Positions 12,561 to 53,930 of a stretch of DNA of 64,000 nucleotides are shown piece by piece. The notes below the pieces were generated by a model that was not told where the DNA came from, did no database searches, and was given only the letters and a program-made list of their open reading frames with translations. This DNA is from Eledone cirrhosa (taxonomy: Eukaryota). A program made the position numbers and the translations under genes. The stretch lies in assembly GCA_964016885.1 (NCBI GenBank), contig OZ024741.1:269700001-269764000 (forward strand), read 5' to 3'. Each line of letters opens with the position of its first letter. Positions within the stretch are counted from its first letter, which is position 1.

Positions 12561-12815
12561 TAGGAGGTGAGTTTTATTGTAGTACAATAAAGCAATGCAG
12601 ATATCGGATAAGAAGCACTCTACAGTTTGTGGGACTGGAGTATGCATAATATAAGATCAAAAGATGGTTAAAGGAGTTCCATATATTTTATTATGCGCAT
12701 TTCAAAAACAAACATCATCAAACAATAATATTTGTGTTTTCATCAGATAAAACAGGAGAACATGATATGAAGGCTAAAAAACACTTGTTGATAGTGCAGT
12801 TTTAAATCAACATAT
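12561..12815 (-). mobile_element. Penelope pLTR-like short element in (AT)n
   Basis: Contains a hammerhead; its 3' part recurs inverted at 48216-48330, also between (AT)n tracts. Confidence 0.75.
12684..12754 (-). ncRNA. Type I hammerhead ribozyme
   Basis: tgttttat-CTGATGA-long stem II-GAAA-tgcgca-TA-ataaaata; all three helices pair and helix III is palindromic. Confidence 0.85.
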
Positions 12816-12943
12816 ATATAAATCAATATATATATAAATCCTTATATATATATATATATATATATATATATATATATATATATATAAGGAAAAAAGATGA
12901 AGTCGAAAATGCAACTGGAATCTTTTTAAGAATATTTATTTGG

Positions 12944-12987
12944 TTCCTTTACCGGTTTCGCAGTTCTTGTGCTTTTCAAAAGTAGAA
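12944..12987 (-). ncRNA. Hammerhead variant with U3-A8 core
   Basis: ctt-TTGAAAA-gca[caagaac]tgc-GAAA-ccgg-TA-aag. Confidence 0.7.
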
Positions 12988-13327
12988 TTGAGATGGAGGG
13001 TTTGTGGTTTTTCTCGCATCTCGTTGGTGTTCGGATGTTACTTCTGTTTTATATGGAAAAAAGTGGCTCGAAATGCTAGGTTTTTAGAAAAGTGATTTGG
13101 TTGGTTGAAGACTATCACGTGAATAAGTATAATAAATTTCGCACCAGTTCGCGTTACAAAGTTCTTATTATATTTGCCTTTTTAAAAACAAGGGTGGGGA
13201 GGGGCTCAGATTGTTTTTTCATATATGAGTAAAATTTGGTTGGTTGATGCAGTCACGTGAATAAGCACATCAACTTTCGCGCCAGTTTGTGTTTGAGTTT
13301 CTTTTTACTTAAAAAAGTGAGTCTTCT

Positions 13328-13528
13328 TTGTTTTTGTTTTTTGTTTTTAACTTATATATATATAATATTTATTAATTAAAATAACAGATTAAAGTTTAAG
13401 CAAAGAATCACTGCTTTCACCCTTAACGGTTAAGAGTGAAAGCAGCGATTCTTTGCTTAAACTTTAATCTGTTATTTTAATTAATAAATGTTATATATAT
13501 ATAAGTTAAAAACAAAAAACAAAAACAA
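13328..13528. repeat. Near-perfect palindrome with 100-bp arms
   Basis: Centre at 13428; about 3 mismatches. Confidence 0.95.
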
Positions 13529-13588
13529 CGAAGAATGCAGTATAAATAGTGTTAGTACTAGGTTCACGCTTGAGAGTGGGGGTGGGGG

Positions 13589-13620
13589 ACGATGTTTCGA
13601 GCATAAGCCCTTCATCAGGA
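13589..13620 (-). ncRNA. Ultra-minimal hammerhead variant
   Basis: tc-CTGATGA-a-gggc[ttat]gctc-GAAA-ca-TC-gt. Confidence 0.6.
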
Positions 13621-51485: not shown

Positions 51486-51541
51486 ACTGCTATATATATT
51501 TCGATGATAGCCATTGAATGGCTATGACCTCATCAGGCAGT
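51486..51541 (-). ncRNA. Type I hammerhead ribozyme in element 51440-51975
   Basis: actgc-CTGATGA-ggt c atagccatt c aatggctat c atc-GAAA-tatata-TA-gcagt. Confidence 0.9.
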
Positions 51542-52959
51542 TAGTTAGTTCTTAGATATGCCAGCTCTGTGTTTATAGTGTTGATGGTATCATAGCCTTG
51601 GGACATATGAGCTTGTTAGGAATAATTTAATGTTGTAAGCAGGAATAGTCTTAATTCTCATTGGTCGGTTTGTAGGTGGTAGTAGGGTTGGTATTTGACC
51701 TTAAAGAGGCAGGTGGTGTTGTAAAGTTCAAACCGTCAGGCAAGATGACAATAGTTCCATATGACTGATTGTCACACAAAGCATTCCTGGTCAGATATAT
51801 ATTCAATTAAGGTTAATAGTATGAAATAGATACTACAGGTCATTCTTAAATTGAGGAATTTATGTGGAGTGGTGCTACTGAAAATGATGGTTAGAGTAGA
51901 AAATTTACTTATGTAGGTTGGCTTTCACGTACAATCACACCCACCTCCACAGACACACATACAAATTGAGGAATTATATATATATATATATATATATATA
52001 TATATATATATATATATATATTTATATATATGTATATATAATATATATACATATTCACACACACACACATATATATATGTATATATATATATAGACTAGC
52101 GATTAACCAGTTAAATTTTGGGGATTTGTTTAGTTAATTCTATTGACTGATTAATCGCTTAAGTTTATTTTAAAAACTACTCGGTCGAGAGCTGAATTCG
52201 TTTTGTGCTATTTTTGCAAATTTTTGCAATAACTACACATACTGAATTCATTGGCCAAAATAGGGGTTTTCTCCCCTTAGAACCTCACATGTGCTTTCAT
52301 AACCTGTGAGATGCTGGCCCATGAAGAACAAAATGCCTGTTGAGAAAGTGATATCCTTGTTCGATCATTATACCAAAAGCTTATTATTTTTTTTATAAGC
52401 AGGCAGTATTATTGATTTAGGTGTCGCAGAAACCCTATATCGGAGTATACCATCTTCCCCAAGGGTCCAGGTAACTATTTCAATCATATCTTATTTTGTT
52501 TGACCCGTTTAGCTTGTTCTTTTGGCTTAGGTGATTAATGGCTTCTTAACCATCGTCTCAGTTTTGTATGACCTTTTAAACTTATGTTTATAGCTCTGAT
52601 ATCTTCATATCCATTGAGCGCTTGTCTGCACAATACAGAAATGCGATTCTCGCTAAATTTATATTTGTATATATATATATAAATATATATATATATACAT
52701 ATACATATACATATATATACATATATACATATCTATATATATATATATACATATATATTATATATATACATATATATATATATATATATACTCTTAAACA
52801 ATTTTACCATTTCTAGCCGTCATATAAATAAATACACATCATATACAATATATATATATATATATATATATATATATATATATATATATACTCTTTTACT
52901 CTTTTACCTGTTTCAGCCATCCGGCTGTCCCCTCAAACTATCTTATTTTTCATTCTTTC

Positions 52960-52991
52960 TTCTGATGAAGGACTAGCTTCCGAAACGTTAA
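52960..52991 (+). ncRNA. Ultra-minimal hammerhead variant
   Basis: tt-CTGATGA-a-gga[ctagct]tcc-GAAA-cg-TT-aa; downstream caagcgt.aaccta shared with the 13505-13695 element. Confidence 0.6.
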
Positions 52992-53179
52992 CACCCTCTT
53001 CCTGCTATATCAAGCGTTAACCTAATATATCCCTTCTATATAATGTACCGATTGTGTTGTTATTTCTGTTTACCTTTTACATATATATATATTTATATAT
53101 ATATATATGTGTGTGGTGCGTGTGTGTAGAGAGAGAGAGGGAGTAGGAGAGGGATAAAGAGGGAGAGAGAGAGTGTTTT

Positions 53180-53450
53180 GTGTGGAGGCACGTGTCCTAG
53201 TGGTAAGTGTGTCGGACTTAATTATCATAAATCGTGGGTTCGATTCATGGGTTGTGTGTTGTGTTCTTGAGCAAAACACTTCATTTCACATATATTCAGC
53301 TGAAAATGAGTACCAGCAATAGCTGGGGTTTAACTCTGCGATAGACTGGCGTCCTGTCCAGGGGGGAGTCTTGTACTCTCAGTCGTTTCACGCCATGAAA
53401 CCGGGAGAAGCACCTGCCAAACGTGCTTTCTGGCTTAAGACAGACTTTAC
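53180..53450 (+). mobile_element. tRNA-derived SINE with V/Meta-like domain
   Basis: A and B boxes, gtgttcttgagcaaaacact centre, 3' part matches 28372-28535. Confidence 0.75.
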
Positions 53451-53865
53451 ACTTAGATCTATATATATTAACATACATAAGAATATATTCTACACATTTT
53501 TATGTGGACATGTATATATATTTATAGAGATAGCGGAGGGGGTAGATAGATAGATAACTTAGTAGGTAGAGAGATGTAGATATAGATATATAAACATATG
53601 TACATATATAAGAATATAATCTTTCTACTATAGGAATATATGTTCCAAATTATAATACATACATATATAAATATATATATGTATATACATCCATATATGC
53701 ATATATACATACATATATATATATATATATATGTAGAAGTTATATTTAATTTGTTGGGATACAACAAGCAAATATTTTTATAACTGATATAAAGCACTCA
53801 ACAAATTTTGGGAGTAAAAATAACAATATATTCACAAATGGAAACTATATTTATAAAACCATATT

Positions 53866-53930
53866 TATTTCATTATACATATTTCAAGGACACCAAAGCA
53901 AATTATGGTCCGCTTTCATTAGATAAAATA
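53866..53930 (-). ncRNA. Decayed hammerhead (core CTAATGA), same family as 51100, in element 53733-54005
   Basis: tattttat-CTAATGA-aag c..c ctt-GAAA-tatgta-TA-atgaaata. Confidence 0.65.

Follow-up and report, generated by a model that had tools for sequence, protein, structure and literature searches.

The hammerhead motifs scattered along a 64,000-nucleotide stretch of the Eledone cirrhosa genome (contig OZ024741.1, positions 269,700,001 to 269,764,000; hereafter the window) raise the question of why a predicted self-cleaving RNA should keep one base pair of its helix II open. An initial annotation had listed six such motifs with helix II arms that differ in sequence but share one geometry, namely three base pairs, a C facing C or U at position 4, and then a long stem, and had proposed that the RNA structure is under selection and that the internal loop may be a tertiary or protein contact defining a distinct hammerhead subtype. 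All six sites are present in the window with the helix II pairs given for them, and a seventh was found.

Five of the six lie on the minus strand and that at 32292 on the plus strand (positions are those of the window). The AAA/UUU-family hammerhead (12684..12754, minus; 54.1 bits) sits within a short 3'-end fragment; its pair 4 is C·U (12736·12707), and the cut is predicted 3' of 12692. One gga/tct hammerhead (28741..28806, minus; C·C 28788·28764) occupies the 3' terminal repeat of an element, in the sense of its open reading frame (ORF) and about 1.3 kb beyond it, and the other (32292..32357, plus; C·C 32310·32334) lies in the inverted repeat at the element's 5' end. The remaining three, all minus, belong to the AGG/CCU family (51100..51165; core CUGAAGA; C·C 51147·51123), the GGU/AUC family (51486..51541; C·C 51526·51506) and the AAG/CUU family (53866..53930; C·C 53912·53889), the last being likely inactive, with core G5 changed to A. 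The seventh, absent from the initial list, is a decayed motif of the same kind (18467..18519, minus; C·C 18503·18488; 40.4 bits). The catalytic core (CUGANGA, GAAA and a UH triplet) is intact in six of the seven copies, 53866 being the exception, and the helix III palindrome is 8 nt long once A15.1 and U16.1 are counted.

A descriptor blind to the mismatch returned five motifs in the window; in 50 shuffled windows it returned 0.22 on average, and no hit there combined three pairs with a perfect palindrome. Because 28741 and 32292 are inverted copies, 99% identical, of a single 117-nt repeat, and 51100 is related to 53866 (87% identity across 167 nt of flank), the independent examples in the window number about four. 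The covariance model R1, constructed in this work, recovers all six sites, the decayed 18467-18519 motif and one weak hit (E 0.05); an Rfam search of the window at the gathering score gave no match. The minus strand at 51100-51541 carries motifs of two different families at a spacing of 379 nt; their helix III palindromes are compatible, and a mixed dimer of the 51100 and 51486 motifs is conceivable. Further short hammerheads occur at 33617 (minus), 13618 (minus) and 52962 (plus), one of them sharing a U·U first pair with published Hydra motifs and two of minimal type.

The gga/tct pair belongs to a decayed, 5'-truncated Hydra-clade Penelope-like element (28693..32405, minus), which has inverted 117-nt terminal repeats (28693-28809 and 32289-32405) and ends near (AT)n. 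Its frameshifted ORF remnants (30078..32221, minus) encode a reverse transcriptase with DKT (KSDKT, within 31964-32221), a CxCx5C linker and a GIY-YIG-type endonuclease; in the 30078-30595 translations the linker is accompanied by CxxC and CxH around E and N, with no CCHH. An N-terminal RWK is a further Hydra-clade feature; RW motifs are visible in database homologues, the window copy being 5'-truncated. Since DKT, CxCx5C, CxxC, CxH and the (TA)n targets match the Hydra-clade motifs as defined in section 11 of PMC8557442, the element was assigned to that clade, on motifs and with the published Hydra references compared by eye, outside the trees. A Neptune label was rejected, as the Hydra motifs fit instead, and Pfam matched no retroelement family on the window ORF remnants. 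In six of the seven window copies (TA)n begins 49-150 nt past the predicted cut. Overall, the hammerhead motifs are very probably of type I, placed near the 3' end of Hydra-clade Penelope-like retrotransposons. Among fetched loci, a protein hit accompanies 45 of 207 motifs (18 downstream sense, 16 inverted upstream, 11 otherwise); the other 162 have none within the 1.5-4.5 kb of locus examined, and therefore most copies are likely short 3' fragments.

ORF remnants of a second element of the same protein lineage lie at 21242..22756 (minus), and an endonuclease fragment at 24015-24494 (minus) comes from a third Hydra family and groups with L303 and L305. In two Hydra families with long open frames (L311, L313, L314, L303, L305 and L316), no recognisable hammerhead was seen in the 2.4 kb past the ORF, and Rfam gave no hammerhead among the best 150 rows for L311 and L303; hammerheads are described as universal in the Hydra clade (PMC8557442). 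A protein homologue is present in Argonauta. The host genome is 3.0 Gb in size and rich in microsatellites, and the window also contains an uninterrupted class A G-protein-coupled receptor frame (4451-6667, minus; 7tm_1, E 4e-69) and two adjoining decayed LINE-like elements (54872-63305, minus) with endonuclease, reverse transcriptase and zinc-knuckle frames recognised by eye.

The geometry of helix II was followed across families in 250 distinct motifs from the fetched loci, of which 212 passed on helix I pairing and 38 (28 of them with C4 by eye) were discarded; the sampled loci lie almost entirely in the first 120 Mb of one contig, and rare families and exceptions were deliberately over-represented. 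Clustered at 65% identity, the motifs form 31 families. Pair 1 (10.1-11.1), in hammerhead ribozymes usually G-C, is paired in 20 of them and U·U in six, U·U being the best tolerated mismatch according to the accessible part of PMC3088659. Pair 2 is paired in 30 families and pair 3 in all 31, with five pair types, while pairs 5-8 are paired in 24-28. Pair 4 is paired in four families only; C4 is found in 26 and C·C in 20, and among representatives pair 4 is unpaired in 40 of 45. Covariation is seen at helix I pairs 1-5 and at helix II pairs 2, 3 and 5-8, with a score over 46 representatives of 0.568 against 0.254 when shuffled and at most 0.171 when slid, in shuffle tests that ignore relatedness. 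Helix III pairs (UA in 44 of 46, CG in two) have a form preset by the search pattern, and RNAalifold gave no consensus structure on the gap-rich 46-row alignment.

The carrier proteins of the main mismatch families are 33-52% identical to one another. That neighbouring pairs covary across families so diverged, with C4 unpaired, bears out the proposal that the RNA structure is under selection, and the unpaired C4 mismatch itself is in all probability selected. The geometry originally described needs some adjustment: the unpaired C stands, but the three preceding pairs are one lax and two strict, and the C faces anything but G, mostly C, with C·A also occurring. A register with an extra base after A9 was rejected, as covariation fits the register without it and slid scores are far lower. 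A coding constraint from the ATG inside the core was rejected by eye, given CUGAAGA families without ATG and a stop in one family.

The same bias is found genome-wide. A pattern fixing only the core, GAAA and an alternating helix III, whose counts refer to that helix III type alone, matched 108,532 times and its reversed control 213 times. At position 4 of helix II, 95.5% of the matches have C (non-C in 4,885), and the partner is C or U in 91.8% (by subtraction), A in 3.3% and G in 0.4%, so that the mismatch proves conserved in this larger sample as well. A purine stands opposite C4 in 3,964 matches and G in 435; in the 100 of these 435 that were listed, C-G is scattered across many families, and no amplified C-G family was seen among the genome matches listed. 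Many of the listed C·A matches represent one short family. The catalytic G5 has decayed in 1,618 matches (1.6%), and the 0.4% with C-G is about a quarter of this, near the share that a single one of the three possible base changes would take. Copies without C4 make up 4.5%, roughly threefold the loss at G5, an excess for which CpG decay and indels may account; U is the commonest replacement (24 of the first 40 non-C matches listed, by eye). A long helix II (38-68 nt) occurs in 2,998 matches (control 227). Another 1,458 matches form a family with a GUC triplet, C·U and a helix III closed by C-G, in a pattern that itself required the C. A metagenome pattern scan gave 53 stretches, none with a convincing helix I and helix II together, and these were taken as chance.

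The mismatch follows a protein lineage. Proteins linked to mismatch motifs form one group with moderate tree support (0.889 in FastTree; SH-aLRT 60.9, or 98.7 with the unlabelled database protein P0003). Three labelled rows (L102, L173 and L315) fell outside this group in the FastTree tree; they are read as neighbouring insertions and were omitted from the SH-aLRT tree. In sister families of the Hydra clade from this genome, helix III measures 7 nt and the long helix II is fully paired, pair 4 included; model R1 gave no hit on the motifs linked to them. These sisters retain near full-length ORFs, and the mismatch is therefore not needed for Hydra transposition in general. Another hammerhead family in the window (233, minus; 18795, plus; 32601, plus) has an extra base after A9, a 4-nt helix III and a 5' helix II arm like that of the GGU mismatch family, but with the C paired with G; no parent element was found for it.

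Published Hydra-clade hammerheads (Craig et al., 2021; PMC8557442 File S2) exhibit considerable similarity to the Eledone motifs: they are of type I, lie near the 3' end, accompany (TA)n targets, mostly lack the extra base after A9, have a lax pair 1 (U·U in 14 of 25) and share the protein motifs. However, in those 25 distinct rows helix II is 3-8 bp long, pair 4 is Watson-Crick in 24 with one having 3 bp and a loop, and none has an internal C·Y mismatch; in addition, helix III between A15.1 and U16.1 is mostly 7-8 nt, against 6 here, and the Octopus bimaculoides element of the same study has a motif that differs from those of the window. With no mismatch in the rows compared, and with fully paired sister families in Eledone, the mismatch marks one lineage.

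Such confinement is also what would be expected had the C been inherited from a single ancestor, or were it kept by a signal at the DNA level (a promoter or integration site) rather than by RNA structure, and indeed C at pair 4 is paired with G in 15 of the 25 published Hydra hammerheads, many of them close relatives (PMC8557442). However, the neighbouring pairs have turned over with compensation across proteins as diverged as those described above, and a signal in the DNA would leave it unexplained why G is avoided at a partner 12-60 nt distant. We consider this account very improbable.

Folding predictions bear on a second account. The palindromic helix III is predicted to be unstable in a monomer: in 12 families it would cost +2.4 to +4.7 kcal/mol as a hairpin, and as a duplex would give -2.2 to -10.5 kcal/mol in 10 and +1.0 in two. 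An unfavourable hairpin and a favourable duplex are likewise described for these elements in the available text of PMC4209133. In helix II, closing pair 4 would by prediction add about 1.3-6.4 kcal/mol in the 12 families, and despite this gain no amplified family with a stabilised, closed pair 4 was seen. Pairs 2-3 are predicted to pair poorly in several families and better once pair 4 is closed, as would fit a mismatch that merely weakens the base of a long stable hairpin, keeping cleavage slow or enabling refolding into a dimer, with the identity of the base incidental; the tolerance of C·C, C·U and C·A, and the laxity of pair 1, agree with this. Any mismatch should then serve; C nevertheless occupies the 5' position in 53 of 62 families, and U, the commonest product of decay, was seen there only in single copies and in small groups chosen for lacking C. 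This explanation is unlikely, although somewhat less so than inheritance or a DNA signal.

The 5' C is the most conserved position of helix II (1.21 bits, against 0.66 for its partner), and this asymmetry, with the avoidance of G opposite, suggests that the C is read by something. The reader might be the RNA itself, the opened C·C pair replacing loop 2 and either docking on helix I or acting as a hinge, in an RNA-only contact that would speed cleavage at low magnesium. The mismatch falls at the point from which loop 2 extends in canonical type I hammerheads, whose helix II has 4 bp before the loop (PMC4209133, as far as its text is accessible), and there is no loop there in the Eledone motifs, a helix II of 6-19 nt being found in only 1,857 matches (control 128), with many internal or deleted forms among the 100 listed. 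Pair 5 has a purine-pyrimidine bias (5' purine in 58 of 62 families), as in a defined local motif. However, base conservation in 30 nt of either flank revealed no conserved tertiary partner for C4: all positions past helix I pair 3 are at or below 0.64 bits, U1.7 occurs in 34 of 62 families, and helix I covaries to pair 5 only. Flanks lacking a conserved partner base weigh against an RNA base pair and leave the proposed tertiary contact unsupported. A contact through sugar or backbone would escape a test of base conservation, and the RNA-only reading is possible but doubtful.

Hammerheads of Penelope-like elements cleave poorly alone. The hammerhead of a Poseidon element cleaved only with its ORF protein, according to the portion of PMC11167929 available, and this precedent, together with the weak case for an RNA base pair, leads us to favour a protein contact over an RNA contact, stability tuning or inheritance. 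The best explanation overall, to which we give a little less than an even chance, is one of predicted self-cutting dimers at the element's 3' end, in which the unpaired C4 offers a base-specific contact for the element's reverse transcriptase protein. The 8-nt self-complementary helix III would form between two motifs, which are predicted to be cut as dimers after AUA, a triplet found in a functional natural hammerhead (PMC1636495, in the part accessible), and selection would act through the transposition of master copies. Reading of the 5' C by the protein, which might assist folding of the weak ribozyme or tag the RNA for use as a template, is the least sure step, and the contact itself is put forward tentatively, on the pattern of conservation. 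It is also conceivable, if rather improbable, that C10.4 is a lineage-specific identity element by which the reverse transcriptase recognises and switches on its own hammerhead, defining a protein-gated subtype.

Junctions of genomic copies bear on the template. The 3' flank of one family occurs in 20,415 copies, 1,098 of them without G12. No pile-up of 5' junctions was found at the predicted cut, where two of 30 fetched G12-less copies join, with more joining at the far edge of the palindrome; this pattern is in line with uncut RNA as the main template. In L331, L346 and L347, the far edge of the helix III palindrome is where fold-back inversions and 5' junctions concentrate, which suggests template switching there.

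Other known hammerheads provide a wider frame for these motifs. Those of metazoan Penelope-like elements (Cervera and de la Peña, 2014; PMC4209133) share the location in terminal repeats, mass copy number, the many families, a long helix II, a short helix I without evident tertiary contact, a palindromic helix III and predicted dimers. Their consensus, however, has an extra base between A9 and G10.1 and a strict G10.1-C11.1 pair, unlike the Eledone motifs, and their copy number reaches about 9,000 per genome, against more than 100,000 here. By eye, two of the 56 representatives have a pair-4 mismatch (C·A in a sea urchin, U·U in a fluke), and a conserved mismatch is unreported in the text available. 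The small dimeric variants of Lünse, Weinberg and Breaker (2017), as covered in the accessible part of a review (PMC6765202), share a diminished stem III, an origin in Penelope-like elements and dimer cleavage. Rfam Hammerhead_1 (RF00163) has the same catalytic core and open helix I, but the Eledone motifs lack its 4-bp helix II and terminal loop 2. In the literature compared, including the accessible portions of PMC3088659, PMC6765202, PMC1636495 and bioRxiv 10.64898/2026.07.22.740005, searches on the mismatch and on cephalopod hammerheads turned up no report of this feature; Lünse et al. (2017), the likeliest prior report, may already picture the variant.

In summary, the mismatch is a structural signature of one retroelement lineage within a known ribozyme class. 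The distinct subtype originally proposed thus stands as a lineage variant of known retroelement hammerheads, one that sister families lack, and Rfam at its own thresholds misses the motif despite more than 100,000 copies in one genome. As to the role of hammerheads in Penelope-like elements, one tested element cleaves only with its protein (PMC11167929, in the part available). A single non-catalytic base kept across deeply diverged families, with natural sisters lacking it, offers a one-base test of RNA versus protein contact. If the mismatch is merely a stability tweak, the result is a tidy annotation; the identity-element reading, if true, would open a direct route to explaining why the ribozymes carried by these elements are weak.
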